Positions 4,781 through 34,763 of a DNA stretch of 64,000 nt are shown here, piece by piece. Position 1 is the stretch's first letter, and each line of letters starts with the position of its first letter. Origin of the DNA: an uncultured Planctomycetia bacterium. Lineage in GTDB: Bacteria; Omnitrophota; Gorgyraeia; 2-02-FULL-51-18; JAGOUK01. Where the stretch lies: the NCBI GenBank assembly GCA_964430735.1, contig CAYSFB010000008.1, positions 12,870-76,869 on the forward strand, given 5' to 3'. The translations under genes and the position numbers were made by a program. Under the pieces are notes generated by a model. That model was given only the letters and a program-made list of their open reading frames with translations. It was not told the origin of the DNA and did not search any database.

Positions 4781-4802
4781 AGAACAATTATATCATAGCC
4801 GC

Positions 4803-10305: not shown

Positions 10306-10375
10306 TTGGACTAAGGTTTGATTAAACGCGCTTAACTTGGGGGTGGGGAACTATCGCCTGTTCAACGGATATGCT

Positions 10376-11990
10376 ATGCCCGGCTTATTAAATAATCTAA
10401 TAAGACTAATTTCATTAGTTTTGGTGGCCGCGTTCGGCCTTCAGGAGGTCGCTTGGGCTGTGCCTGCTCCGGCCCCGGTTGCGCTGTCCGTTTCGCTTGC
10501 CGAGATCGTCCGGAATCCGGCGCTGTTGCCGATCCCGGAGGAGGTGATGACGGTTGAGTCTCAGATCGCCGGAACCAACGGCAAACTGATCGTGCTCGTC
10601 CGTGACGCGCACACGAACTTCGACGCGCAGATGAACCTCGCCAAGGCGCTCGAGTTTTGGATGGACAGGATGCCGCTGGACCTGGTGCTTTCGGAAGGCG
10701 CTTCGGGCGACGTGTCGGTCGACGATGCGGCCGCGCGCTCGGGGCTCGCGCCGGACGACCTCCAGCGCGCCGCGCGGCGGATGGTGTGGGACGGCCAACT
10801 CACCGGACATGAATACTGGAATCTGCTGTCTCCCAAAAAGTTCTCGATCGTCGGCGTGGAAGATCCCGGGCTTTATGGCTCGGGTCTGAAGACATTTGGG
10901 GAGCTGGCCGACACCCGGCATCGGATATCGAAGGATCTGACGTCCGCGTCCCGCGCGATCAATAAGCTCAAGACCCGCCTCTATCCCCAAGCATTGACCG
11001 AGTATGAAGCATCTATTGCTGCTGCCGACGGACAACCGGACGTTTTGAAGCGATCGGAAAAACTCATGGCGCTCGCCGCCGCTTCCGGCGTGGACGCGTC
11101 GGCAGAACGCTATTCCAATCTGGCCCTTCTGCGCCGCCTCGCCGAAGCCGAAAAGACCATCCGTTTTGACCGGTTGAACCAGGAATTTGCGCAATTGTCC
11201 GGAGTCGCCGGAGGAGAGTCGGAGAGCGGTTTGGAAAAAATGCCCGCACAGCCGGCCGGCCTTCTGTCGCGGATTGAAACGCTGCTGGATGCGGCCGACC
11301 GCAAGGGCTTGTCGCGCGCCAATGCTCCGGAATTGGCGTCCTATGCCGGTTATCTGCGCTTGTTGGGATCGCTGGATCACGCGGCTCTTGCGGATGAGTT
11401 GGATGCTTTGGAGCGGGAAGTGTACGCCAAGCTGCTCCCGGACGCGACGCTCATGACGCTGCGGGAACTGGATCTGTATGTCGCCCGTACGACGGACGGT
11501 GTTTCGGTCCAACTCGACCGTTCCGGTTACGACCGCTGGGCGCGGGTGCGAAAAGAAGCGCCGACCGTCTCCTGGCAGGCATTCCTCAACGATCTTTTGA
11601 TCGCGAACGGTTGCGCCGAAGACTTGATTCCGTATCGCGAAGAATTGGAGGGGGCCGCCGGTCCGATCGACGAATTTTATCAGAACGCTTCGGACCGCGA
11701 CCGCGCCTTCGCGGACAACGCCGAACGCGCGATGGAGTCGGGCGGCGCATCTGCCGCGGTCCTCGTCGCCGGTGGATACCACACCCTGAACCTGATCGAC
11801 CTTCTCGCGGCCGAAGGATTCTCGATCGTAGTCATGACGCCCCGCATTACAATTTCCACCGACCGTGATCGCTACGAAAAGATTGTTCTCGCCTCTGAGT
11901 CTGCTTTTATGCCGGCCCTCTCCCGGACGGCCGAAGCATCCGGTCGATTGACGCGGTACGCCCGCGGACAAACAGGACCTGCCGCCAAAC
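10376..11990 (+). other. Shared N-terminal domain of the giant-protein family (copy 1 of 3). It contains the His motifs 'QDAH' and 'GG[YF]HT' and is possibly Tiki/TraB/GumN-like.
   Basis: Alignable by eye to 37246..38830 and 50523..52100. Conserved blocks: 'GTNGKLIVLVRDAHTNFDAQMNLAKALE', 'LVLSEGASGDVSVD', 'AGGYHT...L...GFSIVVMTP' and 'T.D.D.YE'. Confidence 0.6.
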
Positions 11991-17900: not shown

Positions 17901-20900
17901 CCGTCCATTTTGCGCATCTATTTCCGGAGGCCGTACGCCTGAAGCAGCTCAATGTGATCCGGCGCCGGATGATTGGAGCGGATGCCGATCGAGTCGGTGA
18001 CCCCACGATACTTTTTCCTGTCAACAGTCCCGAACAGCTTCGTCTGATCATGCAAGTCCGATCAAGCACCGATCGGTTTCTGGAGAATCTTTTTCCCGCC
18101 TTGGATGAGGATTTGGGGCCGGCGGATCCCGACCGCATGCAGGAGGCGCGGCATGTCCTGGACCGTATTCTGACCCAGACTCAGGAGAATCGGGGAGCGC
18201 GGCTGGCGCGTGACGGGCTGACCCTGAGCGCGGACGCGCAGGGGTTGGACGAGAACCGCTTCGCCGCCGCGTGGGTCGATCCGGCGTCCGTCGAGCTTCC
18301 GATACTGCTGGCGTCCGAGGCCGGGAGCTGGAAGGCGCTTTTGTCCGCGGCGCCGCGAAGTCAGACGGATTCGGGGGACGATGACCGGCGGCGCGAGTTG
18401 TGGATGCCGGGCGATGCGCCGGTCCCCGGAGCGGACGGCATCCCGCTCAAGCATCTGACCTTTTCGAGCAAGGCGCTTCTTCTGTGGGAGTGGAAAAGCC
18501 GGTATCCGGAACTTTTTGCCGGGAATGCGCCTCAGATATTTAAGCAGCTGGGTTTTGACCGGGAGGGCGTGATCGAGTTTGCGGACCCCATCACCCGGTA
18601 TCGTTACCGGATGCCGGCGGTTCCAACCGCACGGGGAGGGATGAACCTTGTTTTTCTGGCGGCTGCGGGGCATCAGGTTCGGGACGCAGCCGGCGCGTCC
18701 ACCGAAGAACACGGACGCGACGCGGCGGTGCTGGTGCCCATCCGGCCCAATCAGGGCTGGCGGTCCAGGGCCGTGGCAGAAGTCTATGACGCGCTTCATC
18801 CCTACCGCATCAATGAAGTTCAGGTCCCGCATGACCGGATTCCGCAGCTGATCCAGCTGATTCCGGCGTCAAACGCTCCATTCGGCGTGGACGCGGTCGC
18901 GATCGAATATCTCGACCCGGGCGGGTTCATGGAATCTGTTCGCGACATGCAAACCCGGCTCACCCAACAGTCGCTGGAGCGGAAGCTGGGCATCCGGATG
19001 CGGTTCTCGCTGGTTCTTGGCGCGGCACGGGCATTGCAGATGATGCATGAAGCCGGCGTGATTCACCGCGACTTCAAGCCCGAGAATGTGCATTGGGACG
19101 GGGATGACGTGAGAATCGTGGACTTCAGCAACGCATTCGTTTACCGGGCGCCCTCTCCGCTGGCGATCCCCGGGGCCCAATCCCGGCTTCAAACCATGCG
19201 CCTCATCGAACCTCTCGAAAAACAGAAAGGCATGCTGGGGGGTACGCCCCGGATTCTGGCGATCGACGGGACGGTCACGCCGAGTTTTGTGGAGGGGTCG
19301 GCCTTCCTGGAAGCGACCAAGCGTTTTGCACATGACCCGTCACAGGACAAGTTCGCCTTTGGACTGTTTTTGGCGCAGGCGTTCGGGATGCATGCGACCG
19401 GAGCGATGGATTCAAGAGAGTTAGATTTGCGTCTGGAATTGCTGCAGTCGGATTTGGAGCGCGCGGGTGAGCAGGTCAAATGGCCGGCGGACCTGTCGGC
19501 GGTCGGCCTGATCGGGCTAATCCGCCGTCTGCTCGACCCGGCGCTCAAGGCGCAGGACGATCTGGACTGGAAGGAAATCATCGATACACTGCAGGGTTTT
19601 GCTGGCATCTACGGGACGAGCCGTTTTGTGCCGACCGAATTTACCGCGGAGAAGCTGCCCGGAGACAGGTATTCGCAGGGTTATCGGGGCGGCGGTACGC
19701 TGGCTCTTGACCCGCCCGGTCTGCCGTCAGATCCCGGTTCAGGCGCCCGGCTTGCCAATGGCAAAGGTCTGGATCCATCCGAGGATGATTTACGCGATAT
19801 GTATACGGCCGCTGCGTTCGGCCCGGATTATCAGATCCATCGGACGCTGCGTGCGGGTCCGATTGATACCGGGATTTTTAAAAATTCCTATGACAGGATT
19901 TTTTCAAATATGAATTTTGGTCCGGAGCAGAATTTTTCTTCCACACTGACGGCCCGCGTGAAGCTTCAGAAGCAGTCGGATCCGAGCCGTCCCTGGATGT
20001 GGCTGGACGTCGGTCCGGGCGCAGGCAATGCATTGAGGGAGGGGATCGAGCTGATCGAGGAAAAAAGTCTTAACGGCCATTATCGGGCCTTGGGCGCGGA
20101 TATCGTTGACCATCGGAGCCGTTCCGGAAGATCCGCGCCGGCCGCCGGTGATTATGGATTCATCCCGCTTCCAGGAGGTGTCGAGAATCTGGAGGTTCCT
20201 GATGGCGCCGAACCTGACCTGATCACCGCGGTCCATGTGCTCATGTACGCAGACGATCCGCTTCAGGCGCTAACCCGCTTGTACAACGTCTTGCGGCCCG
20301 GCGGCGAATTGCTCGTCACCGTCAATGCGATCCATGTCGGCAGCGCTCCGTCAGCGCTTCCGATGATGAATTCGTGGGAGATCGGCAATTGGTTCAGCGG
20401 ATACGCCAAGGATCTGAATTCCAAGGGAATCGCAAGCGCGGAGCTCATCGGCGACGTGCTGCGCATCCGGAAGCTGTCCGCGGACCGTGTCCGGCTCTCC
20501 ATTTCCGCAGATGAGTCATTTGAGCCCTATCGGAACCAGGAAGGCATCCGCATCATCCGATACCGTCCGGCAGATCCGTCACAACCCGGGGTTCTTGAGG
20601 TCGTCGGACCCGGCGCGCGGTTGGCTCAGGCGGATTCGGCTCGGAATGCGATGGCTTCGGTGGCTCGATACGGATTCGTCCGAAGAGGGCTTGAGGCCAA
20701 AAAAATCTTTGACCTTCAGCTGGCATCGACCGGACCCGTAGATTCGGACACGGCCGGAAGGATCACCGGACGTCTGTTGGAACTCATCAAACAGTCTGCG
20801 TTGTCGGCGGGCGATAAGAAGCAATTCCGGCGGTTTTCGGATATTGTTGAGAGTCTCGAGTATCATTCGATTGACCCGGTGTCGGCAAGTCCTTCGGATT

Positions 20901-23900
20901 ATTTGGCGGCACTGCACGATCCCGCTAAAAAAATTCTCTATCTCCCGCAGATATGGATCGATGAGCTGACGAGCCGCACTCCGGCGGACGCCTTCGACGA
21001 GGCCTTGGTCCGGGAGATTTTGTATCCGGCTCAGCGCGTCGCCGTTTTGGGCGGCAGCGGCAAGGTCGGCCGCCGTATTGCGGCCGAGCTGAGGCAGGTG
21101 TACCCGGACGTTTCGGCTGCATCCCGAAGCGGCGGATTTGGGTCCCAAAAGCTCGACGTGACGGATGATGCTGACTTGGCCGGATGGATCGACCGCATGC
21201 GTCCGGATGTAATTGTCTACGCCGCCGGGATCGCAGACCCCGACCGCGCCCAGCGTGATCCTGAAGCCGCTCAATTGCTCAATGCCCGAATACCGAAACG
21301 TCTGCGCAGCCTCACGCGAGCCAGACTCATTTATCTTTCGACAGACAACGTCTTTGACGGCCAGTCCGCAAAGCCCTATCACCCGAAGGCCCGCCCGCGG
21401 CCGCTCAAAGGCATGGCTTATGGCCAAAGCAAGCTCGACGGCGAGCGCGTCACTTTGGACGGATTACGCCACCGGAACGCGGTGCTTCGGCTCGGTCTCG
21501 TCGTCGCCGAAGAGGATGTTGAAAAAATCATTCAACAAATCCAGGGCTCCATGAGCGGAAGCGCTCAGGCGCCGACCGTGGACGGAAAGCGAAAGCGCTA
21601 TCCGGTCTGGGTGGATGATGTCGCTTTGGCGGTGCGGGACCTGGTCGCGAATCCGAAAAAGGGGATTTACCAGCTGAACGGCGAAAAGCCGATAACGCGG
21701 TTTGATATGGCGAGGATCGCGGCCGTGGAATTGGATCCGGAGTCCGGCGATCAACACGTCCTGGCCGGAACGACTGCGACGACGGCCGCAATCCAAGCGC
21801 CGCGTCCGGCGCATGTCCGCATGGAGAATAATCTGATGAAGCCCCGTCCCATTGAGGATCAGATCGTCCAGACGACGAAGCTGGCCGCGCACAACGGGCC
21901 CGGCGCATTAGCCCGGCTTGACCGCGCCGTGCGGCTCCGGGACGGGAAGCTGCTGCGTGAAGCGATGGGTGAGCTCGACGCGCTTGGAATTCGCTGGACG
22001 CTGGCGGGGCCCGTCGGTGCGTTGGAAGATTGGCCGGAGGCCCCGCGTGTCGTGGATACCGGCGATGCAGCCGCAGTATCCCGCGCGCTTTTGGACCATC
22101 TCGTGACTCCGGACACATTCCGCGAGGATCTTGCCAGGGCGGTCGAATCTATTCTGATGGAAGTTCCTTTGGATAGGGTCAGAGTGATGGCTGCGGTTGT
22201 GGATGAGCGGGCCGACGAGTATTGGGTGAATCCGGAAATGGGCGTGCGGACTTTGAGGATCGTCTCGACGGATTTTGTGTATCGGGGGATCGGGATGCGG
22301 TACTGGATGAGCGTCTCCCAAAATGGGATTCCGCATGGGTTCGGTCCCTTCGGACCCTATCGGTCGATGTTGCTTCCCTTGATCAGTCGAATGCCTGACG
22401 GTTCGAGCGCGCCGGCGGAAGAGGTGCTGCAAGGCGGCTCCATGAGCACCGTGGTGCGCGTTCACGAATCGGATCGGAGCACGGTGATCCGTAAATCGGC
22501 ACCGGCCGGTTGGCATGCCGACAAGTTGCGGGATGAGGCGCGTTACATGCGGATGCTCGAGGCTACCGGAATTTTTCCAAAGGTATACGACGTCCAATCG
22601 TCTGACGGGGTGCGCAAAAATCCCCTGTTCAGGCGTCTTTTGGAAAATCCGGCCGCGGCCGCTTGTTTGCACCAATTGATCAAGCTTGCGCACCAAATTC
22701 CATGGCTGAGGCCATTGGCCGGGATGCTTGAGCGATGGGCGGCTCAGCCGCCTGTCCCTAAAGGGACTACGGTCTGGATGGAGGACCTGAAGGGCTATGA
22801 ACAGCTGACCGAAGTGTCCCGTTGGGCCCATTTGGGATTCAAGCGGCCCGAAATCAAGAGCAGTTCGATCGACGACCGCACGATCTATCGTTCGGACTGG
22901 GATATCGCTCTCGACATCTACCGGTCGCTGATCCCTATTTTTTACGGAGTTCAGTCAGCTCAAACGCCGCCGGACTTCCTGCGCAAGTATCATTTTGAGA
23001 AGCTGGAAACGCGCTGGGCCGAGGCGCGGGCGCGGTCCCGTCAGCTGGACCTCGTCATGTCCGCGCCTTACATCAAAGACCCGGATCGCCGATACGGACA
23101 ACTGCTTCCCAACCTCCCGCTGGCCGCGCAGGCGGCGGAGGCGATCGCGTCGTATGACCCGGAAGCCCTGCTTCCGCCTCATCTGACGCGCGAGCACGGG
23201 GACCTGCATTTTGGCAATATTCTGATCCCGCCGGCGGATTACTTCCGCCGCAAGCGGATCGAAAGTTTCCGCCTCATCGATCCCAAATGGCTGCCGAACG
23301 GGAATGACCCTCTCTACGATTTGGCCAAACTCATGCACAACAAGTACGGCTGGTACGATCTCGCGCTCAATCACCACGATTCGTTTTACTTCGGCATGAG
23401 TGTGCCCGAATCCGGCGGGCCTGCCGAATTCCATTGGAACTTTGACGACGAGTCGTATGCGGGTGATCGGATGAGGGACGAGTTTGGAGCTGTGCAGGAC
23501 TTCAGTCAGCAGTTCGAGGAGTGGATGCGCCTTCCGGACGATGATCCAAGGGTCCGGGATATGGAACGCTTTGGTTTGAATTGGCGGACGCGGCTCATTT
23601 TTACCCACGCGTCCCTATTGGCCGGACTTCTCAACTTCCACGTTCTACCGGAAGATCCGCAGTCCAAGATCAGCGTGATCTACTGGCAGGCGGCGACGCA
23701 ATTTGACCGCGCGATCCTTCATTTGATCGGCCGTGAAGAAGAGTATCGCCATCAGACGGGCCAACGCCGACTGCCGGACGATCTGTACACACCGCTGAGA
23801 ACGATGGTTCTGCTGCAGCGGGTCTACCAGCAATCCGATTCAGAAGAGGTCAAAGCCGCTGCCGAGCACCAGTACGTCGCGGCCATCAACGATCTGCGGC

Positions 23901-26900
23901 ACTTCCTGGAGCAGAGCACCGCTCCCGCTGTCTCCGGCGCGCGATTGGCGAAGCGTACCGATGTCCGGCGCAAAGTAAAACCTGTTGATCGCGATAATCG
24001 CGGACCTGAGTTAAAAGCGGCGCCGGACCCGCTGGATATCATCTTTGCTGATCAGCTGATCCGGGAGTCTGACGCGCGTCTTTTGGCGGCGTTGGCGGCG
24101 GGGGAGCCGCAATCCTTTGTCGTGCCGGTTGACCGATCGGCCATCCGGCGGTTGCACGACCGATATCGTCAATCCCGGACGGCAGAGGAGCGTGAAGCTG
24201 CCGAACAGCTGCTGGTGGATTCGCAGATCCGCTGGATCGTCCAAATTGCCCGTAAATGGGACCGCATCAATCAGAGCCGTGTGCACAACTCGGAAGTCGG
24301 ACTCTCGGACATGGTGAGCTTGGGTATTCGTAAAGCGCGGGAGTCGCTCGATCGGTATGAGCCGGATAAGGGTGCGTTGAGCACGTGGATTACGCTGCCG
24401 GTCGACGGAGCGATCAGAAATCGGGTCTATGAAGGCGCCCGCCACCGGAGACGAGCCGGCAATATCGACTTGATCGGCTCCGAGATTGCCGCTCTTCCTG
24501 ATCTGACTTCCGATCAGAAGAAAGCCGTGCGGTCGGCGATTGCCGGAATGGAGGAAAAGGATCGGGAGATCGCGATCCTGTTCTTCGGCCTGATCGGAGA
24601 CAAAGAGACCAGCAACGAAATCGCCGACCGATACGAAGGGTTCTTGTCCAAGGAAGAGATTGAATCCCGGGTTGAGATGATTCTGAAGCGGATTTCGGCT
24701 CTGAATGCCTCGAACCCCGCAGAGACGGATCGAACCGTGCCAACTCCGGAAGAGAACGCTCCCGCATCCTGGCAGAATGACTCGCTCGCGACCATCCGGA
24801 TGATGCATCTGGCGTTGCGGGATCCGGAGACCGTGAGCTCCTGGGAGGCATTGTCTCAAAGGGATTTGTCGATTCTGCGCACCTACTACGAGAGCGGCGC
24901 GGAAGCTCGTCCGACAATGGAGCAACTTGCTTCTGAGTACAAGATCAGCAGGGCCAGGGTGGGGCAGGTCATTCAAGGAGCCGTTCGACGGCTTCGGAAT
25001 GAGCAGATGCGGGCCTGGAAGCATCTGCGGGAGGCGACGGGACTATCGCATGATCGGATACGCGCGGCATATGACCGGGCGGTTGATGTCGAGCGTCAGG
25101 AGGACGGTATCCGCAATGGACACCCCACCCCGACTCCCCGGGAGTTTGAAATGGAGCTGCGTCAGATCCCGGGCGTCCGGGCGATCGGCCCATTGACCGC
25201 GGAGCTGGCCAGGGCCCATTACAACCTGGCGCACCCGGCGACTCCGCTGAAGTTCTTCGGAGAAACCGAAGAATCCACGCGGTTGAGCGGATCCGCATCC
25301 GCCGAGGATCGGATTCTCGCCTACGTGCAATCCGCCGGCGGAATCGCATCCTGGAAGGAAATCGCCAAACATTTGGGTGTGAAGCAATCCGAGGCGCGGA
25401 CATATTTGACCCCGGAGCGGCTCGGGCAGATTCAATCGGAATCAAGATACGGAGTCGATGCGACGGTTCAAAGGCAGCGTTTGGTCCCCATCATCCTGGA
25501 TGCCCGGGACGCTGAGAGGGCCCGCCGAATCATAAGGGCGATGGAAGGAACCGGCAAGGAGCGAAGCTTCCGATTTGGAATGGCCACCTATCCTGAGATC
25601 GCCGCTGCGATGAAGATCCGTCTGTCCGGAAGCCGGCCCCCCCGGACCCGGATCTTCCGGCGCATCAATGCCGAGCAGCTCCTTGCCGATCTCAACAGCA
25701 ATAGAAGAATATTGAATCGGACGGGCCTGCCGTTCCGCCCTCTGCTTCAGATCATTCCGGCAGACGATCGGAACGCGGATTTGCGTGTCGTTGCGCGTGA
25801 GTTGCGCGGCGGTGATCCGGCCTCCGCCATCGGGATCGCCGAACGCGTCGGACGGTCTGCGAAGAGCGTTCATGCATCCGTCGAGCGTTTGCTGTTGGAC
25901 CACACAAGCGCCCACCGGCACCTCTATAACCTGATCGTCACAGGGCAGCCGATGATGCGAATGCCGGACGATAATAAAATATTTCGCTCTCAAAGTCAGA
26001 TTTTAAGGGCGGTTGAAGAATTGGGCGGTGTCGCCAACGCCCGGCAGATTTGGGATTACCTTCGGAACCGATACGGAGTAAAAATCAACCGATCGACGGT
26101 TGAGGATTATGCGTTCCGTCAGATGGATTGGGACGGGATCAACCGGCATCGGATGCAGGAGGGCAAGTTTGCACTCCGCGTTGTCGGTGCGAACCTGGAT
26201 GGATCCATGGCCCGCAGGTCGTTCGGCGATCGTCCCGGTTATGAGGGATTGGACCCGCTGCTGGTGAGCGCGGAACGGGATTACAGAGATCGATTTAAGG
26301 AATCAGACGACGGACGCACCGATTTCAGGTACCGGGTGTTGCCGGCGATTCATGGCATCCTCAAGCATTCCCCATCCGAGCAACCGATCGAAGTCCGATT
26401 CGGCCGCGTCAGCGATTTGTTGATCGACGCCTGCGCGACATGGTCTCAGCTCAACCCGGGACTTACCCGGGCGGAATTTTTTGAAACGGTCACTCTTCGA
26501 GCCATCCTGTTAACTTCCATTAAGACCGATGTTGATTCTGATTCGGATTGGGTCGGCCGGTTTGCCCTGACACTCGAGAAGGTGATTCACACCAACGGCC
26601 CCTTGGCGCCATCCGAATATGCCCCCTGGCTCAAGCCCGCAAGTTCCGCATCGCCGAGCCCCCGCGCTACCGATCGGAATGGTGCCCGCCTGTCAGAGAA
26701 TGCGGCCGGATCGGCCGGACAGATAGACTGGCGGGAGCAGGCGCGATCGCTGCTTGAACCGGATCCCGATAAGCGGTCTTCCGCCTCACTTGCGCTCGCA
26801 CGGGTGCTGATGCTGGATATCCGCAAACGCGTGGATGAGGGGATGGATCGGAAAGAATTCGGCTGGAACGATCCCGGCCGGATCGCTCCGGCTGTTGCGC

Positions 26901-28789
26901 CGCAGATTCCCGGTATCGTGGACCGGCTGGAGCAGTTGTTCGCCGGAGAGCTGGTGCCGGACATCGCGTCCTATGCCCGGGAGCGGCCCGCATCATCCGA
27001 GGTCACGGGTGATTCGTATGATCCGAGAAAGGGCCTGGCTAATTACCGGGCGGCGGCTTTCTTTGCCCTGACCGAGCTCGCGGGGCCGACCCGTTTGGTG
27101 ATGGATATCAACGAGCGGCGGTATATCGCAGCGCCGGTAAAAGAAGAGCTGCTTCGCCGGATGGAGTCCTATCGCCAGTCGCTGGATGCGTCGGGCGCTG
27201 AGCGGTTGGATCGGATCTACCGGGAATTCCGCCAAAGCGGACTGTATGAATTCGGGCCCTTCTCGATAGAAGCGGAGCTGAATCTTCTCGAGTGGACGAT
27301 GCTTTATTGGCGGTGGATCCATGAGCCGAGTGGTCTTGAGCGTCTGTCGCCCGGTCAAATCAAGCTCGCCGACCGGATGAAAAACCAGGTTTACGAGTAT
27401 GTGCGAAAAGGAATCCTTTACACGTTTCTGACCGATTCAGCCGGCAGAGAACTCGAATCGGAAGTCGCTTCACGCATCGGTGAATCCAAATCACGATTCG
27501 GCGCCCGGCTCGCGCAGAAAGGCTCGGGTCCTGAGCGGCACGACTTCAAGAATCTCAAGGCAGGAGCCGAGATCGTCATTCCGAACAAGAGCCGTCTGCG
27601 GATCCGGATTCTCGAGTTGGGTTTGAATTGGGCGGAGATCGAAGTAACCGGAGCGGATGGACGGCAGCCCGCCCGGATGAAGCTTTTTATTCCAAAGCAG
27701 TCTGAGTCCAAGATGGTGATCGGAGACGCGATCAAGGCCAGCGCGGTGGAAGTGGATTCGCAAAAAGGAAAAATGCACCTTCGCGTCGAAGTCCCATCCG
27801 GGATGGAGCGCAAGCCGTACCGCGAGGAAGGCGCCCGTCTGGCGTTTCCGGAGCCGGCGACGGAGCAGGATCTCGCGGGTTGGATGGGCGAAGCGGATCT
27901 GCAGGAGATGGGGCGGATGGCCCAATTGCTTCAGAAGGAGCGTTTGAAGGGGGCGTATGCCGTGACGATTCTGGGGCTGGCGGCGCTGCTGCGCATCGGT
28001 CCCGGCGGCGCGTCGGTGAGCACGGCCGAGCACAGGGCCGCCATTTCGCTCGCGACGTCCGTCGCCAAGTATGATTCGGGCCGCGCTCCGGCGGGCATGC
28101 CGCAGCTGTCGCGCACGCTGCGCGCCGCGTACCGGCAAGTTCAGAATCCGATCGGCCCGCGTTACATCGAGCACGACCTCGCGCGTTACAAAGTGAAGAA
28201 CGACGCACACGGGGTCATCTTCCGATCGGCCGTCGAATCCCTGTCGCATGTGCTCAAGCGGTTGCCGGAAGTCGAAGTGCGCTTCACATGGAACGGCGCG
28301 CCGATCGCCGACCCGACCCTGGATCTTCCGGACCCTCAAGCCCGCAAGCTCGTCGAGGACGCGCGCAAGATTTTGTCGGCGTGGGACGGTTCCGGAGCCA
28401 AAACGCTGATGGACCTGCCGTCCGGCCGCCGCGGGGTCCGCGATTTGACTCCACGGGCGTTGGAGCGTTTCGCGGAGACCGATAAAGCCTTCGTACTCAC
28501 CGCATCCGGATTGAACAACGGTGTCCGCGACCCGGTCGCGACGCTGCTGGTGCAGGTGCGGCTGGCCGATCCCGCTCCGATCGTGGAAGGGGAGGCGGTG
28601 GTGGGCCTGCTCCGTTACCTGACCCGCACCGACATATCCGCAGAAGACGCCGAGTTGCTCAGGGCCGGGGACGCGGAAGCCGTTCTGGCCCGGAAACAAA
28701 AATTCTCGATCAAGCCGATGGCAGCGCGCCTGGCCGAATCGGTCGCGCATCTCATCCGCTCGCTCGCCGCAGCCGCCGTTGCGGCCTAA
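10376..28789 (+). CDS. Giant multidomain protein 1 (about 6,100 aa). It has an N-terminal signal peptide and a paralogue-shared domain, followed by embedded PRTase-, protein-kinase-, methyltransferase-, RmlD-, APH- and sigma-70-like modules.
   Basis: Uninterrupted 18.4 kb ORF. The track places the start at TTG 10337. ATG 10376 is preferred because it gives 'MPGLLNNLIRLISLVLVAAFGLQEVAWA', which is signal-peptide-like and conserved in the paralogues. The N-terminal ~540 aa aligns with the other two giant ORFs (motifs 'LVRDAHTN' and 'VLVAGGYHTLNLIDLLAAEGFSIV'). Internal domain motifs are listed as separate features. Confidence 0.85.
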   Translation: MPGLLNNLIRLISLVLVAAFGLQEVAWAVPAPAPVALSVSLAEIVRNPALLPIPEEVMTVESQIAGTNGKLIVLVRDAHTNFDAQMNLAKALEFWMDRMPLDLVLSEGASGDVSVDDAAARSGLAPDDLQRAARRMVWDGQLTGHEYWNLLSPKKFSIVGVEDPGLYGSGLKTFGELADTRHRISKDLTSASRAINKLKTRLYPQALTEYEASIAAADGQPDVLKRSEKLMALAAASGVDASAERYSNLALLRRLAEAEKTIRFDRLNQEFAQLSGVAGGESESGLEKMPAQPAGLLSRIETLLDAADRKGLSRANAPELASYAGYLRLLGSLDHAALADELDALEREVYAKLLPDATLMTLRELDLYVARTTDGVSVQLDRSGYDRWARVRKEAPTVSWQAFLNDLLIANGCAEDLIPYREELEGAAGPIDEFYQNASDRDRAFADNAERAMESGGASAAVLVAGGYHTLNLIDLLAAEGFSIVVMTPRITISTDRDRYEKIVLASESAFMPALSRTAEASGRLTRYARGQTGPAAKLLSVLLSIEPDGARLAGTDAAVAHTIRIQSSGDLESAIVRRFAVYKMGSADEAERFARELAQTVRTRYAAELARDRGRIVIVTPPRNVAGSPITAVARSVAAQLGLPYVETFEEPLEPGPTYIGVSSARVREKLARQTGLILRPELNLAGKKILILDDMITTGTTIRATQSKLEERFGTEDFMVAAMVRLESSDPADEKNVSRYLADRKDWDAVVEILNDPRTRIGKSVVEMFTALNPDMRIGLLAQLTDVAVKKLLLSTMLFDHGTRSVDWMQTLWVRIAPVAWSSSAHPALEDGYWSEEFQSWLDRAAASEADPVLLEQMILLLEFVHRRESMTRLVTIADRFKGSFVGTQATDALNRRVEPVSEDDVYDVFEHFRYPKGLQSGLARPDGERTISMKFLGEPRQELNASFAGSGRDGHVSRIVTLTPDPDGTVMAKPKERIIFDASWMKLRPDIANGAVKGIFLKSAGDRSGDVTARIVVDDRMLDVFPARAGRDGIIEWRIEGLSEALRRKSATNQFFFRNWQFQRRPEAVAGARLATGEAGAEAAEVAAFAFTGIDEEKIYSDPDALEAIAPFRIRVLKNGQVHFGSRDRGRLEKSVMAHTSIPEGEWLTVTPEYRQQLPAGLDAQWILRLNRKSGAPLYYRFVNTGTFLKKLDLSAGGFLGSFSRIGRYKDRSLPPFPQDEFSVTVLKGGNANFASWSDTQGSGDAVIRRLRIRLGDEYEGLPVRVRKFFVNSQLSEWLLLVLKPATGTAPETGDSIRGRMLVYRFVRPGRIEQIKRHPSGDEQWSAFPGLDQAAAQFAVTASPGDGARLAKSGNADDGIEFAEKWLRKYAFLSRLRMSDVEWRKEEGEKLAREAAKAISEVHVMIRHRLAYDAQGVELKPVVSLRGLTLEPSVDYWTAWASAASDHGEELGVSDGWKQAVLGAITVLSCYQDNHAHLKHQGGESRRNYYRSVLALDSARLVLDPASRGVRIDLAHAFFHNKEYVQAEKLLEDLLLSDKTNRTALVLTGYVRLEMAARALSRMERQLEQEKYMDALESFARTLRLLDAAQEPLRKATDRRTLNGPRGIKSLARAMSGMALVAMRRAEAYRILSDRPEVRGVAQPRYRSVVHSISALEHALSALNVNGAGPDALGHSFGIYRDIVVRLARGLDASALDRIDPARYQELRGLMVRMKELLNSAPNDDVPARKRKSARGSHSVQTTIADSISVLSAVCVAIQTSLDRRDEIKEKLNKAVLRVLHDQHPEDPASFEARVAEDFAAAIPVAQVSEREAWIAVARSHLESLHTTREDIALAGWHLLSDSGDRTLESLSEISGIEASVVAERFRSPFLKEVGLALEEESSPPDADVKVSPKKYTQDMAIYNLGDIKSFLASDVWIRPEPDAADVHTIPSAKHIERMFRQLRPWLSFRSPIDWDHLSAMRKRMWEQIDQFFELAPSALKKNAEDIDTLRMNLTHLRRGTDDKPGYWVRAKELMDRLKRRQQTIEDQIRAGIGKIDSDLTKLRARNNVLRIGYLDELIKGLELRRARLNGLLDPQDPGYLLPEHFDEQMQAAQADRELVQPLEAVEASLTRVRDLEWEVDRQVHQAAEAAAAADLPGTSAASAVVRRLRTEMRQVERMFQKYALRADSEKKMSQIEGRLGRIQQEAVRIRQALERRSSIRERISRIRQQADAGRPLLQPLTEWCAKIARQTDRMDDMLRDADLAGDRREDGEAYSGRLQLVLEEVDRVEKEVDEMLARLGQKSANAMKASLVGVELMAALLWQWSEQAFPGTTAHARRFTTASWKLREKIEKLKSQSDRGWIDPGLREEIDMAFLMCFLEYVRAMNEEHDLLIDKAKQQILQLTKQLKNRIATGPMKSEEIGLFTLTLTRVHYLDLPSDFELVLYSDKEQRQRLSEEGHKAFIKKLKAMPVHDNPFLQQFEDRWQYHGPEGFEESFAYRDLLHGLWMTVVFYMDGYESASGSTKPVHFAHLFPEAVRLKQLNVIRRRMIGADADRVGDPTILFPVNSPEQLRLIMQVRSSTDRFLENLFPALDEDLGPADPDRMQEARHVLDRILTQTQENRGARLARDGLTLSADAQGLDENRFAAAWVDPASVELPILLASEAGSWKALLSAAPRSQTDSGDDDRRRELWMPGDAPVPGADGIPLKHLTFSSKALLLWEWKSRYPELFAGNAPQIFKQLGFDREGVIEFADPITRYRYRMPAVPTARGGMNLVFLAAAGHQVRDAAGASTEEHGRDAAVLVPIRPNQGWRSRAVAEVYDALHPYRINEVQVPHDRIPQLIQLIPASNAPFGVDAVAIEYLDPGGFMESVRDMQTRLTQQSLERKLGIRMRFSLVLGAARALQMMHEAGVIHRDFKPENVHWDGDDVRIVDFSNAFVYRAPSPLAIPGAQSRLQTMRLIEPLEKQKGMLGGTPRILAIDGTVTPSFVEGSAFLEATKRFAHDPSQDKFAFGLFLAQAFGMHATGAMDSRELDLRLELLQSDLERAGEQVKWPADLSAVGLIGLIRRLLDPALKAQDDLDWKEIIDTLQGFAGIYGTSRFVPTEFTAEKLPGDRYSQGYRGGGTLALDPPGLPSDPGSGARLANGKGLDPSEDDLRDMYTAAAFGPDYQIHRTLRAGPIDTGIFKNSYDRIFSNMNFGPEQNFSSTLTARVKLQKQSDPSRPWMWLDVGPGAGNALREGIELIEEKSLNGHYRALGADIVDHRSRSGRSAPAAGDYGFIPLPGGVENLEVPDGAEPDLITAVHVLMYADDPLQALTRLYNVLRPGGELLVTVNAIHVGSAPSALPMMNSWEIGNWFSGYAKDLNSKGIASAELIGDVLRIRKLSADRVRLSISADESFEPYRNQEGIRIIRYRPADPSQPGVLEVVGPGARLAQADSARNAMASVARYGFVRRGLEAKKIFDLQLASTGPVDSDTAGRITGRLLELIKQSALSAGDKKQFRRFSDIVESLEYHSIDPVSASPSDYLAALHDPAKKILYLPQIWIDELTSRTPADAFDEALVREILYPAQRVAVLGGSGKVGRRIAAELRQVYPDVSAASRSGGFGSQKLDVTDDADLAGWIDRMRPDVIVYAAGIADPDRAQRDPEAAQLLNARIPKRLRSLTRARLIYLSTDNVFDGQSAKPYHPKARPRPLKGMAYGQSKLDGERVTLDGLRHRNAVLRLGLVVAEEDVEKIIQQIQGSMSGSAQAPTVDGKRKRYPVWVDDVALAVRDLVANPKKGIYQLNGEKPITRFDMARIAAVELDPESGDQHVLAGTTATTAAIQAPRPAHVRMENNLMKPRPIEDQIVQTTKLAAHNGPGALARLDRAVRLRDGKLLREAMGELDALGIRWTLAGPVGALEDWPEAPRVVDTGDAAAVSRALLDHLVTPDTFREDLARAVESILMEVPLDRVRVMAAVVDERADEYWVNPEMGVRTLRIVSTDFVYRGIGMRYWMSVSQNGIPHGFGPFGPYRSMLLPLISRMPDGSSAPAEEVLQGGSMSTVVRVHESDRSTVIRKSAPAGWHADKLRDEARYMRMLEATGIFPKVYDVQSSDGVRKNPLFRRLLENPAAAACLHQLIKLAHQIPWLRPLAGMLERWAAQPPVPKGTTVWMEDLKGYEQLTEVSRWAHLGFKRPEIKSSSIDDRTIYRSDWDIALDIYRSLIPIFYGVQSAQTPPDFLRKYHFEKLETRWAEARARSRQLDLVMSAPYIKDPDRRYGQLLPNLPLAAQAAEAIASYDPEALLPPHLTREHGDLHFGNILIPPADYFRRKRIESFRLIDPKWLPNGNDPLYDLAKLMHNKYGWYDLALNHHDSFYFGMSVPESGGPAEFHWNFDDESYAGDRMRDEFGAVQDFSQQFEEWMRLPDDDPRVRDMERFGLNWRTRLIFTHASLLAGLLNFHVLPEDPQSKISVIYWQAATQFDRAILHLIGREEEYRHQTGQRRLPDDLYTPLRTMVLLQRVYQQSDSEEVKAAAEHQYVAAINDLRHFLEQSTAPAVSGARLAKRTDVRRKVKPVDRDNRGPELKAAPDPLDIIFADQLIRESDARLLAALAAGEPQSFVVPVDRSAIRRLHDRYRQSRTAEEREAAEQLLVDSQIRWIVQIARKWDRINQSRVHNSEVGLSDMVSLGIRKARESLDRYEPDKGALSTWITLPVDGAIRNRVYEGARHRRRAGNIDLIGSEIAALPDLTSDQKKAVRSAIAGMEEKDREIAILFFGLIGDKETSNEIADRYEGFLSKEEIESRVEMILKRISALNASNPAETDRTVPTPEENAPASWQNDSLATIRMMHLALRDPETVSSWEALSQRDLSILRTYYESGAEARPTMEQLASEYKISRARVGQVIQGAVRRLRNEQMRAWKHLREATGLSHDRIRAAYDRAVDVERQEDGIRNGHPTPTPREFEMELRQIPGVRAIGPLTAELARAHYNLAHPATPLKFFGETEESTRLSGSASAEDRILAYVQSAGGIASWKEIAKHLGVKQSEARTYLTPERLGQIQSESRYGVDATVQRQRLVPIILDARDAERARRIIRAMEGTGKERSFRFGMATYPEIAAAMKIRLSGSRPPRTRIFRRINAEQLLADLNSNRRILNRTGLPFRPLLQIIPADDRNADLRVVARELRGGDPASAIGIAERVGRSAKSVHASVERLLLDHTSAHRHLYNLIVTGQPMMRMPDDNKIFRSQSQILRAVEELGGVANARQIWDYLRNRYGVKINRSTVEDYAFRQMDWDGINRHRMQEGKFALRVVGANLDGSMARRSFGDRPGYEGLDPLLVSAERDYRDRFKESDDGRTDFRYRVLPAIHGILKHSPSEQPIEVRFGRVSDLLIDACATWSQLNPGLTRAEFFETVTLRAILLTSIKTDVDSDSDWVGRFALTLEKVIHTNGPLAPSEYAPWLKPASSASPSPRATDRNGARLSENAAGSAGQIDWREQARSLLEPDPDKRSSASLALARVLMLDIRKRVDEGMDRKEFGWNDPGRIAPAVAPQIPGIVDRLEQLFAGELVPDIASYARERPASSEVTGDSYDPRKGLANYRAAAFFALTELAGPTRLVMDINERRYIAAPVKEELLRRMESYRQSLDASGAERLDRIYREFRQSGLYEFGPFSIEAELNLLEWTMLYWRWIHEPSGLERLSPGQIKLADRMKNQVYEYVRKGILYTFLTDSAGRELESEVASRIGESKSRFGARLAQKGSGPERHDFKNLKAGAEIVIPNKSRLRIRILELGLNWAEIEVTGADGRQPARMKLFIPKQSESKMVIGDAIKASAVEVDSQKGKMHLRVEVPSGMERKPYREEGARLAFPEPATEQDLAGWMGEADLQEMGRMAQLLQKERLKGAYAVTILGLAALLRIGPGGASVSTAEHRAAISLATSVAKYDSGRAPAGMPQLSRTLRAAYRQVQNPIGPRYIEHDLARYKVKNDAHGVIFRSAVESLSHVLKRLPEVEVRFTWNGAPIADPTLDLPDPQARKLVEDARKILSAWDGSGAKTLMDLPSGRRGVRDLTPRALERFAETDKAFVLTASGLNNGVRDPVATLLVQVRLADPAPIVEGEAVVGLLRYLTRTDISAEDAELLRAGDAEAVLARKQKFSIKPMAARLAESVAHLIRSLAAAAVAA
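12215..12530 (+). other. Phosphoribosyltransferase (PRTase type I)-like module inside giant protein 1
   Basis: 'GKKILILDDMITTGTTIRA' at 12446-12484 is the classic PRPP-binding motif, preceded by 'IVIVTPPRNVAGSPITAVARSVAAQLGLPY'. Confidence 0.6.
18600..19350 (+). other. Eukaryotic-like Ser/Thr protein-kinase-like module inside giant protein 1
   Basis: The catalytic-loop motif 'VIHRDFKPENV' (HRDxKPxN) at 19064-19087 and 'IVDFSNAF' (DFG-like) at 19121-19129. Confidence 0.55.
19990..20340 (+). other. Class I SAM-dependent methyltransferase-like module inside giant protein 1
   Basis: Motif I 'WLDVGPGAGNAL' at 20003-20029 and 'LRPGGELLVTV' at 20291-20317 (MTase type-11-like). The module is bounded by GARLA at 19742 and 20612. 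Confidence 0.55.
21035..21520 (+). other. RmlD-like (dTDP-4-dehydrorhamnose reductase / NAD(P)-epimerase) module inside giant protein 1
   Basis: 'RVAVLGGSGKVGRRIAAEL', then 'LDVTDDADLAGWIDRMRPDVIVYAAGIADPDRAQRDPEAAQLLNA', then 'LIYLSTDNVFDGQSAKPYHPKARPRPLKGMAYGQSKLDGE'. This matches the RmlD STDYVFDG...P...YG.SKL.GE signature. Confidence 0.6.
22420..23420 (+). other. Aminoglycoside-phosphotransferase (APH)/choline-kinase-like kinase-fold module inside giant protein 1
   Basis: 'HGDLHFGNILIP' (Brenner motif) at 23194-23217, 'FRLIDPKW...NDPLYDLAKLMHN' (Asp of the DFG equivalent), and an N-lobe-like 'GGSMSTVVRVHESDRSTVIRK'. Confidence 0.5.
24180..25010 (+). other. Sigma-70 region 2 / region 4-like segment inside giant protein 1
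   Basis: 'AAEQLLVDSQIRWIVQIARKWDR...EVGLSDMVSLGIRKARESLDRYEPDKGALSTWITLPVDGAIRNRV' parallels sigma-70 region 2.1-2.4 ('[37 protein letters not shown]'). Two region-4-like HTH segments follow: 'EKDREIAILFFGLIGDKETSNEIADRYEGFLSKEEIESRVEMILKRI' and 'DLSILRTYYESGAEARPTMEQLASEYKISRARVGQVIQGAVRRLR'. Confidence 0.5.
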
Positions 28790-28831: not shown

Positions 28832-29320
28832 ATGCGCCGCTTCCAGCTTTTTGCTCTCACATTGATCCTGTCGATTGCCGCAACCGCGTCCGCCTCGGAC
28901 GAAGGCTCCAGCGGCGCCATCGAAACCTACTACCCCAACGGCGCGGTCAAATCCCGGGCGATCTACAAAGACGGCCGTCTGGAAGGACCCTATGAACTTT
29001 TTTCAAAAGACGGCCGGCTTCAGGAATTCCGGACGTACCGGAACGACAAGCTGAACGGTCCGGGCCGCCGGTATTTTGCCGATGGCCGGATTGCCGAAGA
29101 AGTGAGCTATGCCGACGGATTTTTGGACGGTCCCTACAAACAGTACGATTCCAACGGCAAGCGGCTGATCGAGGCCGTTTATCAGCGCGGCAAACCCGTG
29201 ACGCCGCTGCGCGTGTATGGCGCCAACGAGGCGTTGATCAGCGCAGAACATTATACGATCGGCGAAAAAGCTCCCAAGCCCGCGGCCCGTCCCGCCCCCA
29301 AAAAGCAAAAGCGTCCCTAA
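28832..29320 (+). CDS. Secreted MORN-variant repeat protein (YwqK-like)
   Basis: Signal peptide 'MRRFQLFALTLILSIAATASA', then repeated 'YxNGxxxxxxxYKDGRLEGPYELF / YRNDKLNGPGRRYFADGRI / YADGFLDGPYKQY' units typical of MORN_2/YwqK repeats. Confidence 0.55.
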   Translation: MRRFQLFALTLILSIAATASASDEGSSGAIETYYPNGAVKSRAIYKDGRLEGPYELFSKDGRLQEFRTYRNDKLNGPGRRYFADGRIAEEVSYADGFLDGPYKQYDSNGKRLIEAVYQRGKPVTPLRVYGANEALISAEHYTIGEKAPKPAARPAPKKQKRP

Positions 29321-32828: not shown

Positions 32829-34763
32829 ATGAAGGCAGAAGACAAAAAATACTTTTTGCATCTCAAAGACCTGGTGAAGCTCGAGGAAGCCGGGGAGAAC
32901 GAGGAGATCCGGAGGGAATTCCTCAATCTCTCGCCGGAAGACCGTGAGCTCCGGGGCAAGTCGCTCCTGTCGCTGTCGATCTCAAGCCGGTCGTTCAGCC
33001 CGGCGGAGCACGTGCTCGTGACGTTCAGCCGCGAAGGCGACCGGCCGCTGCCGATCTTCACGCTCGAAGAAGGGGATCTCGTCACGCTCGTGCCGCGCCG
33101 CGAGCAGATCCGCGAATGTCCGTCCGGCACCGTGTACGAGAAGGCCGCCGATTCGATCACCGTCGCGTTCCACCACCCGCTCCCCGAGAGCTTCGACGAG
33201 GTGAAGCGTTTTGATCTCCACAAATCCGCCAACGCCGTCGCGTACCGCCGGATGCTCGAAGCGCTCGACGCGGTGATCCAGACCCAGGCGCGGGTTCTCT
33301 CGCGCTTGCGCGACATTTCGCTCAAGGAAGCGGAGCCGGCGCAGGATCCGGTCGGAGCCGGCTCGTCGCTGGTCTGGTTCGACCCGGGCCTCAACGCCTC
33401 CCAAAAAGAAGCCGTCCGCAAATGCCTCGACGCGCGGGAGCTCGCGCTCGTCCACGGCCCTCCCGGCACCGGCAAGACCACCGTTCTCGTCGAGCTCGTG
33501 CGCCAGGCGGCGCTCCGCAAACAGAGCGTCTTCGTCACCGCGCCGTCCAACACCGCCTGCGACAACGTCCTCGAGCGTTTGGTCGCGGCCGGCGTCAACG
33601 CCGTGCGGATGGGTCACCCCGCGCGCATTTCTGCCGGGCTGCGCGACCACACGCTCGACTTCAAGCTCGCGCTGCACCCGATGTCCAAACTCGCCTCCGA
33701 CATCCAGATGGAACTCGACCGGCTCTACAAACGCCAGGAGCGTTACCGCGACCGGCGCAGCCCGGGCTTCGACCGCGAACGCGAGCTCCGGACCGAAATC
33801 GACACGTTCAAGGCCCAGCTCCGCGCCGTGCGCAAGGAGATCTTCAACCGTGTCCTCCAGACGGCGGACGTCTTCATCGGCACGCCGACCAGCATCGGCG
33901 ACCGGTCGATCCGCGAAAAGACCTTTGACCTCCTCGTCTTCGACGAAGCCACGCAGGCGACAGAACCCTTGAGCTGGATGCCGATCGCGCGGGCGAACAA
34001 GCTCGTCATGGCCGGCGACCACTTCCAGCTGCCGCCGACGGTCCGTTCCAAAGAGGCCGAAGCCCGCGGTCTGGGCGTGACGCTGTTCGAACGCTACTTC
34101 GACATCCTGGGCCCCGACTACAAGCAGCTCATCGAGCGCCAATACCGCATGCACGAGCACATCATGGGCTTCTCATCGAAGATGTTTTACGAGGGCAAGC
34201 TCGTCGCCGACGAGTCCGTGAAGACCAAAGTGCTCGCCGACCTGCCGGGCGTGGCCCGGGTCCCCGAGACCGAGGCGCCGCTCCTCTTCTTGGATACCGC
34301 CGGGAAGGGGTATGAAGAAAAACTGGAGGAAGGGAGCCAAAGCCGTTACAATCCTGAGGAAGCGGAACTCGTTCTGGGGGAGCTGAAGCGCTATTTGGCG
34401 CTCGGAGTGCCTCCGGAGGAGATCGCGGTCATCAGCGCGTACAGCGCGCAGGTCCGTCTGCTCGTATCCAAGAGCCCCCATCCCCAGGTCGAAATCGACA
34501 GCGTGGACGGTTTTCAGGGACGCGAAAAGGAACTCGTGATCGTCACGCTCGTCCGCTCCAACATGGACGGCGAGATGGGCTTTTTGGCCGACACGCGCCG
34601 CATGAACGTCGCGATGACCCGCGCGCGCAAGCGCCTGATCGTGATCGGCGACGGCGCGACGCTGACGACCCTGGACTTTTATAAAAAATTCATCGAATAC
34701 GCCGAATCGGTCGGCGGTTACCGGAGCATTTGGGAATATGAAAACCCTTCTTCAGATCAGTAA
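32829..34763 (+). CDS. Superfamily-1 helicase of the Upf1/DNA2-like AAA_11/AAA_12 type
   Basis: Walker A 'VHGPPGTGKTTVLVELV', motif II 'LLVFDEATQATEP', 'SVDGFQGREKELVIVTLVRSN', and motif VI 'VAMTRARKRLIVIGD'. Confidence 0.75.
   Translation: MKAEDKKYFLHLKDLVKLEEAGENEEIRREFLNLSPEDRELRGKSLLSLSISSRSFSPAEHVLVTFSREGDRPLPIFTLEEGDLVTLVPRREQIRECPSGTVYEKAADSITVAFHHPLPESFDEVKRFDLHKSANAVAYRRMLEALDAVIQTQARVLSRLRDISLKEAEPAQDPVGAGSSLVWFDPGLNASQKEAVRKCLDARELALVHGPPGTGKTTVLVELVRQAALRKQSVFVTAPSNTACDNVLERLVAAGVNAVRMGHPARISAGLRDHTLDFKLALHPMSKLASDIQMELDRLYKRQERYRDRRSPGFDRERELRTEIDTFKAQLRAVRKEIFNRVLQTADVFIGTPTSIGDRSIREKTFDLLVFDEATQATEPLSWMPIARANKLVMAGDHFQLPPTVRSKEAEARGLGVTLFERYFDILGPDYKQLIERQYRMHEHIMGFSSKMFYEGKLVADESVKTKVLADLPGVARVPETEAPLLFLDTAGKGYEEKLEEGSQSRYNPEEAELVLGELKRYLALGVPPEEIAVISAYSAQVRLLVSKSPHPQVEIDSVDGFQGREKELVIVTLVRSNMDGEMGFLADTRRMNVAMTRARKRLIVIGDGATLTTLDFYKKFIEYAESVGGYRSIWEYENPSSDQ

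Follow-up and report, generated by a model that had tools for sequence, protein, structure and literature searches.

Sigma factors are small, free and dissociable subunits of RNA polymerase that act in the cell that produces them. The giant proteins described from Omnitrophota are multi-enzyme proteins of poor sequence conservation (West-Roberts et al. 2023, 10.1101/2023.11.21.568195; 2026 preprint, 10.64898/2026.06.07.730766), in which hundreds of different Pfam families have been reported, mostly in sequence-unique chains. It has been proposed that the products of these open reading frames (ORFs) are cleaved into smaller ones, and a link to predatory or parasitic lifestyles is suspected. The DNA analysed here, a 64-kb stretch of contig CAYSFB010000008.1 (the window, by which we mean the whole stretch), encodes three giants of 6,150, 4,374 and 4,316 amino-acid residues (aa). 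The largest, giant 1, brings the two kinds of protein together. As judged from profile searches and alignments, its residues from about 4600 to 4890 are a complete, divergent sigma-70-family module lying in the reading frame of the giant. The architecture is a variant of two known kinds, sigma-70-family domains and multi-enzyme giants of the Omnitrophota type, and the module is so far a single, unconserved instance; if functional, it would represent a new way of making a sigma factor, as part of a polyprotein and possibly delivered into another cell. An earlier reading of this DNA, made from the letters alone (the sequence-only reading), had supposed that a sigma-like module inside a giant protein is an undescribed arrangement, and we likewise found no description of one. 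Sigma factors are not mentioned in the main text of either preprint or of Seymour et al. 2023, one supplementary text file of 10.64898/2026.06.07.730766 contains no entries for Sigma70, PF04545, PF04542 or PF08281, and a literature search combining sigma factors with giant proteins returned nothing relevant.

The four peptides that the sequence-only reading had likened to sigma-70 regions 2 and 4 all lie in the frame of giant 1 (aa 4621–4887), and profile searches bear out the resemblance. The NCBIfam model TIGR02937 (sigma70-ECF superfamily) matches aa 4626–4786 over model positions 6–161 of 165 with 47.5 bits (curated cutoff 42.9; E = 1.5e-12), and Pfam Sigma70_r4 (PF04545) matches aa 4838–4888 with 33.3 bits against a gathering threshold of 24.1 (E = 3.4e-8; 28.4 bits on the isolated segment). 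Region 2 taken alone is just sub-threshold: on the isolated segment aa 4627–4697, Sigma70_r2 (PF04542) scores 22.2 bits (E = 1.2e-4), which is 1.8 bits below its gathering threshold of 24. In addition, the phage sigma-factor family PHROG 351, annotated as 'RNA polymerase sigma factor', is matched at E = 4.3e-6, and phmmer against PDB sequences returned weak SigA matches through region 2.1 and region 4 (E ~1e-3). An exhaustive phmmer search of 1.84e9 cluster representatives recovered 24 proteins at E ≤ 1e-3, one of them giant 1 itself (P0001, 6,109 aa). The non-self matches, with library-wide E-values from 1.6e-7 to 9e-4, comprise ordinary sigma factors (group 1/3-like, and one ECF), a tandem sigma factor, a sigma factor with a duplicated C-terminal half (P0009) and proteins built of sigma4 repeats. 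These E-values rule out a chance resemblance among helix-turn-helix (HTH) proteins. Named NCBIfam models gave partial local matches, SigK/SigE in the sigma2 part and RpoH and FliA/WhiG in the sigma4 part, with whole-protein scores of all named sigma-family models far below their cutoffs (for SigK/SigE, 23–29 bits versus 252–349).

The best non-self matches (E = 1.6e-7 to 1.3e-4; identity 25–32%) are multi-sigma4-repeat proteins (P0002, P0003, P0005–P0008 and P0011; 565–1,722 aa) and tandem or duplicated sigma factors (P0004 and P0009), which resemble giant 1 in placing sigma-70 domains in larger proteins and in duplicating the sigma4 HTH. Both groups differ from it in consisting almost wholly of sigma-derived units, without the enzyme modules, the signal peptide plus head, or the ARLA motifs described below. 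Together with P0016, these repeat proteins (355–1,722 aa) are AT-rich-looking and carry many tandem sigma4-like units of ~70 aa with the pattern 'FYxKFxGYSKEEVDEAL...YYGLxGE...', and some of them also contain one complete sigma2–sigma4 core; P0004 consists of two sigma factors in tandem, and the duplication in P0009 covers sigma3–sigma4.

A MAFFT alignment with 11 of the matched sigma factors is colinear from region 2.1 through the end of region 4.2. The module runs in the order sigma2, linker, HTH unit 1, acidic Pro-rich linker, sigma4, and the order and spacing of sigma2, linker and sigma4 are those of sigma-70 groups 3 and 4 (FliA/WhiG, RpoH, SigE/SigK and ECF). It departs from these groups in three respects: (i) it lies 4,600 residues inside a chain of 6,150, whereas they are free proteins of 20–70 kDa; (ii) it contains an extra acidic HTH unit and is followed by four winged-helix-like repeats; and (iii) it carries Leu in place of the region 2.2 Glu, and Ala and Gly within the 'RERxRQ' motif. 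At least nine of the 11 aligned sigma factors agree in 38 columns; the module has the same residue in 17 of these, and the other changes are mostly conservative. The non-conservative ones are L4662, at the position equivalent to sigma70 E407, and A4873 and G4876 in the recognition helix of region 4.2, which reads R-A-R-V-G-Q, keeping R4872, R4874 and Q4877 and losing the Glu and the third Arg. The residue replaced by L4662 is Glu in nine of the 11 aligned sigma factors and has a role in core binding. The sequence-only reading had pointed instead to the altered melting residues (WWIRQ) as a sign of a non-sigma role, an argument that is weak on comparison. An aromatic residue is retained as W4684 at the sigma70 Y430 position, and while Leu and Pro occupy the W433 and W434 positions, the WW pair is also missing from matched sigma factors: P0010 has 'SSYTLPYLKG' (sharing 'TLP'), P0004 'STYVYNTIDG' and P0012 'FSKLHIHGG'. 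Loss of the pair was therefore rejected as proof of non-sigma function, and the three substitutions at L4662, A4873 and G4876 are the more telling deviations.

Two HTH units had been described as region 4-like. The second is a bona fide region 4, but the first is better regarded as an HTH of uncertain sigma3/sigma4 affinity. It lies inside the TIGR02937 stretch, where the ECF-shaped model treats it as sigma4, and it is the best-matching segment in the matches to sigma4-repeat proteins. However, HTH unit 1 alone has no Pfam sigma match, BLASTP detected no similarity between units 1 and 2, and in the alignment with group 1/3 sigma factors it falls where sigma3 lies. The unit is acidic as a whole (net charge –5), its 'recognition helix' included.

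A single-sequence AlphaFold run of the module was poor, with a predicted local distance difference test score (pLDDT) of 47.7; with a 12-sequence alignment the mean pLDDT was 75.6, and values were 80–97 for sigma2 (aa 4600–4700), 59–76 for HTH unit 1 and 72–92 for sigma4. The top Foldseek matches in the PDB were only sigma chains (SigA, SigS and sigma32; 274–321 columns, E from 2e-6), and the predicted sigma2 and sigma4 folds superpose on solved ones at 1.2–2.0 Å. Because the alignment behind the model consists of sigma factors, this result demonstrates compatibility and is no independent proof of the fold.

A trivial explanation would be that a stand-alone sigma gene has been fused to the giant by mis-assembly or frameshift, or that it is expressed alone from an internal start. 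Gene callers do differ on the start of giant 1 (6,109 or 6,121 aa versus the 6,150-codon ORF). Against such an artefact, the DNA of the sigma module region is 100% identical in three independently assembled SRA runs (SRR14271366, -72 and -73), so that it is not an assembly chimera and mis-assembly was ruled out. The frame around the module is open for ~4,500 codons upstream and ~1,250 codons downstream, in an 18.4-kb ORF without decay, and family-specific ARLA motifs flank the module in the same frame. Nor did a promoter scan find a promoter-like site in nucleotides (nt) 23600–25200, and no Met occurs between the upstream GARLA and the start of sigma2. Taken with its internal-start variant, this explanation is highly improbable. 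As for the start itself, public gene calls begin at V30 (6,121 aa) or V42 (6,109 aa), inside or just past the hydrophobic segment, and so delete the signal peptide. The N-terminus with its signal is kept across 31 family members in head alignments, and this family-wide conservation argues that the true start lies upstream of V30 and V42, probably at the ATG at nt 10376.

The module does not stand by itself in the chain. It is followed by four tandem winged-helix-like repeats that have sub-threshold Pfam matches to HTH_24, HTH_AsnC-type, FaeA and HTH_21, a mutual identity of 22–26% and a net charge of +18. A profile built from the four re-locates them at the same positions (aa 4987–5286), with no further match in any of the three giants or in the family loci. 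The sequence-only reading placed the sigma block between two GARLA motifs, one at nt 23936 and one at nt 27500; both motifs are present, but a GARLS variant intervenes and is the probable downstream edge. From the motif positions, the repeats and the distribution of charge, it follows that the sigma module and the four basic winged-helix-like repeats form one unit, ~910 aa long and delimited by GARLA at aa 4534 and GARLS at aa 5449; the sigma module is the N-terminal third of this unit and no isolated insertion.

The remainder of giant 1 places this unit in a wider setting. Head alignments assign the protein to a widespread metagenomic family characterized by a predicted Sec-type signal peptide, a conserved head of ~520 aa and variable cargo. 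The heads of giants 1, 2 and 3 are 28–31% identical, and beyond the head the three are unrelated. When JGI metagenomes were scanned with the head alignment, 105 tblastn-confirmed relatives were obtained, and 79 loci were kept (L084–L162; GC 0.39–0.66); nearly all are giant ORFs, and in most the ORF exceeds the fetched DNA after >3,800 codons. Invariant head residues are D-A-H, E, R and G-G-x-H. Pfam matches of the head are weak but recur: of 31 members, 10 match PF04187 (ChaN, Tiki superfamily; best E = 0.0037) and six match DUF5694. These matches suggest a Tiki/TraB-like hydrolase, perhaps a processing enzyme. A head profile found nothing meaningful among PDB sequences.

The second family hallmark is a short motif. 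The 184,832 residues of head-family giants that were examined contain 196 copies of [GAS]ARLA, compared with 3.3 expected from shuffles (~60-fold); the residues before it are rich in S, A, P and T, and there is no conservation after it. Across the six frames of the window there are 14 exact GARLA occurrences, all of them in frame with the giants; the search for AARLA variants was confined to the giants. The motifs lie between Pfam domains and delimit protein-sized units, such as methyltransferase units of 285–290 aa, and the giant 3 hexokinase is bracketed exactly by motifs at aa 3323 and aa 3743. [GAS]ARLA is thus positioned as a candidate inter-module processing or recognition site; a literature search for GARLA returned only author names. 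The cargo so delimited is hypervariable across the family, consisting of protein-sized modules separated by [G/A/S]-A-R-L-A. The giant 1 cargo beyond the head gave one weak BLASTP match across all family loci, and Pfam scans of two other family giants (L136 and L126) found only HEAT repeats, a methyltransferase and UPF0489. Within giant 1, the enzyme signatures appear intact on reading the sequence: ILILDDMITTGTT in the PRTase, HRDFKPEN...DFS in the kinase, GGSGKVG...YGQSK in the RmlD-type reductase and HGDLHFGN in the APH-type kinase.

This organization is close to that of the Omnitrophota multi-enzyme giants (10.1101/2023.11.21.568195), including the 'class 1 multi-enzyme metabolic clusters' (10.64898/2026.06.07.730766), in which unrelated enzyme domains (hexokinase, methyltransferases and kinases) likewise tile a long chain, sequence conservation is poor and cleavage has been proposed. 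The phylum is likely also the same. PntB, encoded just upstream of giant 1, is 75–77% identical to proteins of metagenome-assembled genomes (MAGs) labelled Candidatus Omnitrophota or Planctomycetia and of unclassified MAGs, the next tier (up to 68%) comprising other members of the Planctomycetes–Verrucomicrobia–Chlamydiae (PVC) group and assorted phyla, which suggests Omnitrophota as the source of the giants. The present giants differ from the published ones in size, 4.3–6.2 thousand aa being below the published cut-offs of 10 and 30 thousand aa, and in having a single N-terminal signal peptide where those have many transmembrane helices. The published accounts describe no sigma module and, though no search aimed at these two was made, neither the shared head nor the ARLA motif; the words 'linker' and 'polyprotein' are absent from both preprints. 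A head at 79 loci and a 60-fold enriched motif around protein-sized modules would turn the statement that giants may be cleaved into one about specific sites, and together they may be a more important lead than the sigma module.

The sigma module is rare. Among the 1.84e9 cluster representatives it is an orphan: besides its own protein, nothing comes closer than ~30% identity, and no relative exceeds ~37% even over the matched stretches. Back-translated pattern scans found no relative of the module in GTDB representative genomes, JGI metagenomes or IMG/VR, and a word-indexed homologue search, with either the module or the head, returned nothing, not even giant 1 itself, and is uninformative. 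In the fetched parts of the 79 related giants, neither a second sigma module (by BLASTP, phmmer and custom HMMs for sigma, the winged-helix repeats and segment 8) nor a homologue of the whole ~910-aa unit was found; these parts cover at most ~3,900 aa each, whereas the module of giant 1 sits at aa 4600, so that absence from the relatives is not proven. The sole other sigma-type match in these loci is a free-standing ECF-like ORF of 204 aa (L140, + strand, frame 2), located within 10 kb of another head-family giant. All known copies of the module are 100% identical, and selection on it is therefore not measurable.

An orphan found once, in a family with hypervariable cargo and among giants reported to hold hundreds of Pfam families, might be a degenerate sigma-derived domain that no longer works on RNA polymerase. 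It could serve as a nucleic-acid-binding or scaffold module, for extracellular or prey DNA together with the winged-helix-like repeats, or ride along as a neutral passenger. The hallmark substitutions, the acidic HTH unit 1 and the sub-threshold Pfam region 2 score would all fit such decay. However, the sigma2–linker–sigma4 arrangement and its spacing, needless for simple DNA binding, have been kept; the module matches 17 of the 38 conserved sigma columns exactly, with mostly conservative changes in the others; sigma2 is modelled with high confidence; and the 18.4-kb ORF is intact. We consider degeneration somewhat unlikely on this balance, although a decayed passenger would itself show how freely giant genes accrete domains.

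The sequence-only reading took the host protein to be secreted, and an export signal is indeed present in canonical Sec-type form, as judged by eye: a positive n-region, an h-region of 12–13 residues and A-W-A/V (the slash marking the predicted cleavage point). The layout recurs in giants 2 and 3 (AWA/GP and AFA/AP, again with a positive n-region, a 12–13-residue h-region and A-x-A). In a hydrophobicity reading of the three giants, neither a second convincing transmembrane segment nor a stop-transfer segment was seen, and giant 1 has no other strongly hydrophobic segment, with one weak segment at aa 1756.

This signal bears directly on another possible role for the module, that of a pro-sigma factor serving the RNA polymerase of the producer itself. 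By analogy with pro-sigmaK and pro-sigmaE, which are also made as inactive precursors and activated by proteolysis, or with sigma factors sequestered at the membrane, the giant would act as a polyprotein or tether from which proteolysis at ARLA motifs releases the sigma factor into the producer's cytoplasm. The complete domain set (sigma2, linker and sigma4) agrees with this role, as do the partial local matches to group-3 types (SigK/SigE, RpoH and FliA/WhiG, all far below cutoffs), the flanking motifs, which could be cleavage sites, and the resemblance of the neighbouring modules to ordinary cytoplasmic enzymes. Nevertheless, a cleavable, positive-inside signal peptide without a stop-transfer segment predicts that everything downstream is exported. 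The orthologues expected in related genomes were not found among the 1.84e9 representatives, GTDB representatives or JGI metagenomes, and the nearly invariant region 2.2 Glu has become Leu. The known pro-sequences, moreover, are ~20–30 residues long, compared with ~4,600 residues upstream of the module here, and the SigK/SigE model scores fall far short, as noted above. A producer pro-sigma is accordingly an unlikely reading.

We tentatively favour the view that the giant is exported and that an ARLA-released sigma/winged-helix unit binds RNA polymerase core or DNA, more likely in the cytoplasm of another cell than in that of the producer; we hold this as a plausible reading and short of a confident one. 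Specifically, the giant would be exported through Sec; the ARLA motifs would serve as processing or recognition sites that free the modules; and the freed unit would use sigma2 and sigma4 to bind polymerase core, and sigma4 together with the winged-helix-like repeats to bind nucleic acid, thereby redirecting or sequestering transcription. The sequence-only reading had likewise proposed a cargo interfering with transcription in a target cell, or an anti-sigma or decoy element. The cytoplasm of a host or prey cell would be the site of action, the giant forming an effector string of MARTX-like logic and the unit hijacking the victim's polymerase or acting as a decoy for it. The modules next to the unit depend on ATP, NAD(P)H, S-adenosylmethionine or phosphoribosyl pyrophosphate, none of which is available outside a cytoplasm, yet the protein has an export signal, which makes action in another cell's cytoplasm more likely. 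The substitutions at the three hallmark positions make a competitor or decoy possible in place of a productive initiation factor. The link between Omnitrophota giants and predatory or parasitic lifestyles, together with the PntB identity, provides context for an effector.

Two described systems offer parallels to such an effector. MARTX-type toxins combine a conserved delivery part with variable effector modules and short inter-module processing sites. The giants show a similar logic, with a putative delivery part, a variable string of modules, candidate inter-module processing sites and a presumed target. They differ in carrying an N-terminal Sec-type signal instead: RTX repeats, a cysteine protease domain and a type I secretion signal had no Pfam match in the three giants. 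We know of no MARTX effector that is a sigma factor. Sigma-family proteins made by phages take over host RNA polymerase, the same mechanism as proposed here, but they are synthesized in the host cell from phage genes and not delivered within a bacterial protein; the IMG/VR pattern scan found no viral relative of the module.

Several considerations weigh against an effector role. The signal peptide was called by eye, and the Tiki-like head, on E ~0.004 at best, is a protease candidate only; export, cleavage and polymerase binding alike are deduced from sequence. The Sigma70_r2 score is under the Pfam gathering threshold, three hallmark positions (L4662, A4873 and G4876) are non-conservatively changed, and the fold match is partly circular, coming from a model whose alignment is built of sigma factors. 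The module is an orphan whose copies are all identical, so that purifying selection is not demonstrable, and with no other sigma module in the fetched parts of 79 giants it may be a one-off domain capture. Finally, if the prey were archaea, as for Ca. Velamenicoccus archaeovorus, a bacterial sigma factor would have no target. A broader proposal is that all three giants are exported polyproteins of an undescribed family, with signal peptide, Tiki/TraB-like head and GARLA-cut cargo, that deliver cytoplasmic-type enzymes into a host or prey while the sigma unit captures the victim's polymerase. This we regard as doubtful in its entirety; if true, it would provide the first sigma-family protein acting as a trans-kingdom or inter-bacterial effector. 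For the function of giants in Omnitrophota-like nanobacteria, a module with a well-understood partner, the polymerase core, gives a direct handle.

Table 1. Positions of the sigma module, the giants and neighbouring features (nt, window coordinates; aa, residues of the giant named, giant 1 unless stated).
Feature	nt	aa	Strand	Basis or remark
Giant ORF 1	10337–28789		+	6,150 codons counted from first TTG; multi-module protein with sigma module
Predicted Sec-type signal peptide, giant 1	10376–10459		+	MPGLLNNLIR-LISLVLVAAFGL-QEVAWA/VP; read by eye
Conserved head domain, giant 1	10460–12016		+	Common to the three giants and 79 metagenome loci
Signal plus head regions, giants 1, 2, 3	10376–12016, 37246–39000, 50523–52100			Homology
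PRTase		618–764	+	Pfam match
Pkinase		about 2891–2938	+	Pfam match
Methyltransferase (SAM)		about 3223–3326	+	Pfam match
RmlD_sub_bind (RmlD-type reductase)		about 3567–3835	+	Pfam, 126.6 bits
APH-type kinase		from about 4031	+	Pfam match
GARLA, upstream edge of unit	23936–23950	4534–4538	+	Motif position
Sigma domain 2 (regions 2.1–2.4)	24194–24451	4620–4705	+	
Region 2.1-like peptide	24197–24259	4621–4641	+	In frame of giant 1
Region 2.2–2.4-like peptide	24293–24427	4653–4697	+	In frame of giant 1
HTH unit 1	24542–24706	4736–4790	+	Acidic, sigma3 position, profile sigma4-like; peptide aa 4740–4786, nt 24554–24694
Sigma domain 4 (regions 4.1–4.2)	24842–25006	4836–4890	+	HTH unit 2 peptide aa 4843–4887, nt 24863–24997
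Four tandem winged-helix-like repeats	25295–26194	4987–5286	+	~70–85 aa each; sub-threshold Pfam, repeat alignment
GARLS variant, probable downstream edge of unit	26681–26695	5449–5453	+	Motif position
Next exact GARLA	27500–27514		+	Motif position
ARLA-motif examples in giants	12023, 13595, 14423, 18194, 19742, 20612, 23936, 27500, 27830			Also in loci L086–L160
Methyltransferase, giant 2				Pfam
Giant 3	50421–63371			Signal-peptide-bearing giant
Adenylate kinase (ADK), giant 3		1698–1892		Pfam
2-Hydroxyacid dehydrogenase, giant 3		2906–3204		Pfam
Hexokinase, giant 3		3362–3739		Eukaryote-type; Hexokinase_1 153 bits, Hexokinase_2 143 bits
S8 subtilase-family ORF	232–1050		+	
M3 oligopeptidase-F-type gene	2981–4780		–	
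MORN-repeat protein	28832–29320			Between giants
Upf1-like helicase	32829–34763			Between giants
ABC-F-type protein	34738–36606			Between giants

The genes around the giants add a few further observations. No secretion-system genes were seen among those of the window, and the nearest relatives by PntB (L005, L007 and L008) have no giant gene after pntB. In one of these, L007 (2–8431; MAG SRP342105_co1_457), an ORF of >2,809 aa lies directly upstream of pntA and contains one SARLA and no repeated motif; big genes adjoin pntAB in related genomes, not all of them of the ARLA family. An ORF of the S8 subtilase family and an M3 oligopeptidase-F-type gene are located a few kb upstream of giant 1; for Omnitrophota giants, a processing role of S8 domains has been proposed. 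Between the giants, the window encodes a small MORN-repeat protein, a Upf1-like helicase with AAA_11 and AAA_12 domains, and an ABC-F-type protein with two ABC_tran domains and an ABC_tran_Xtn.

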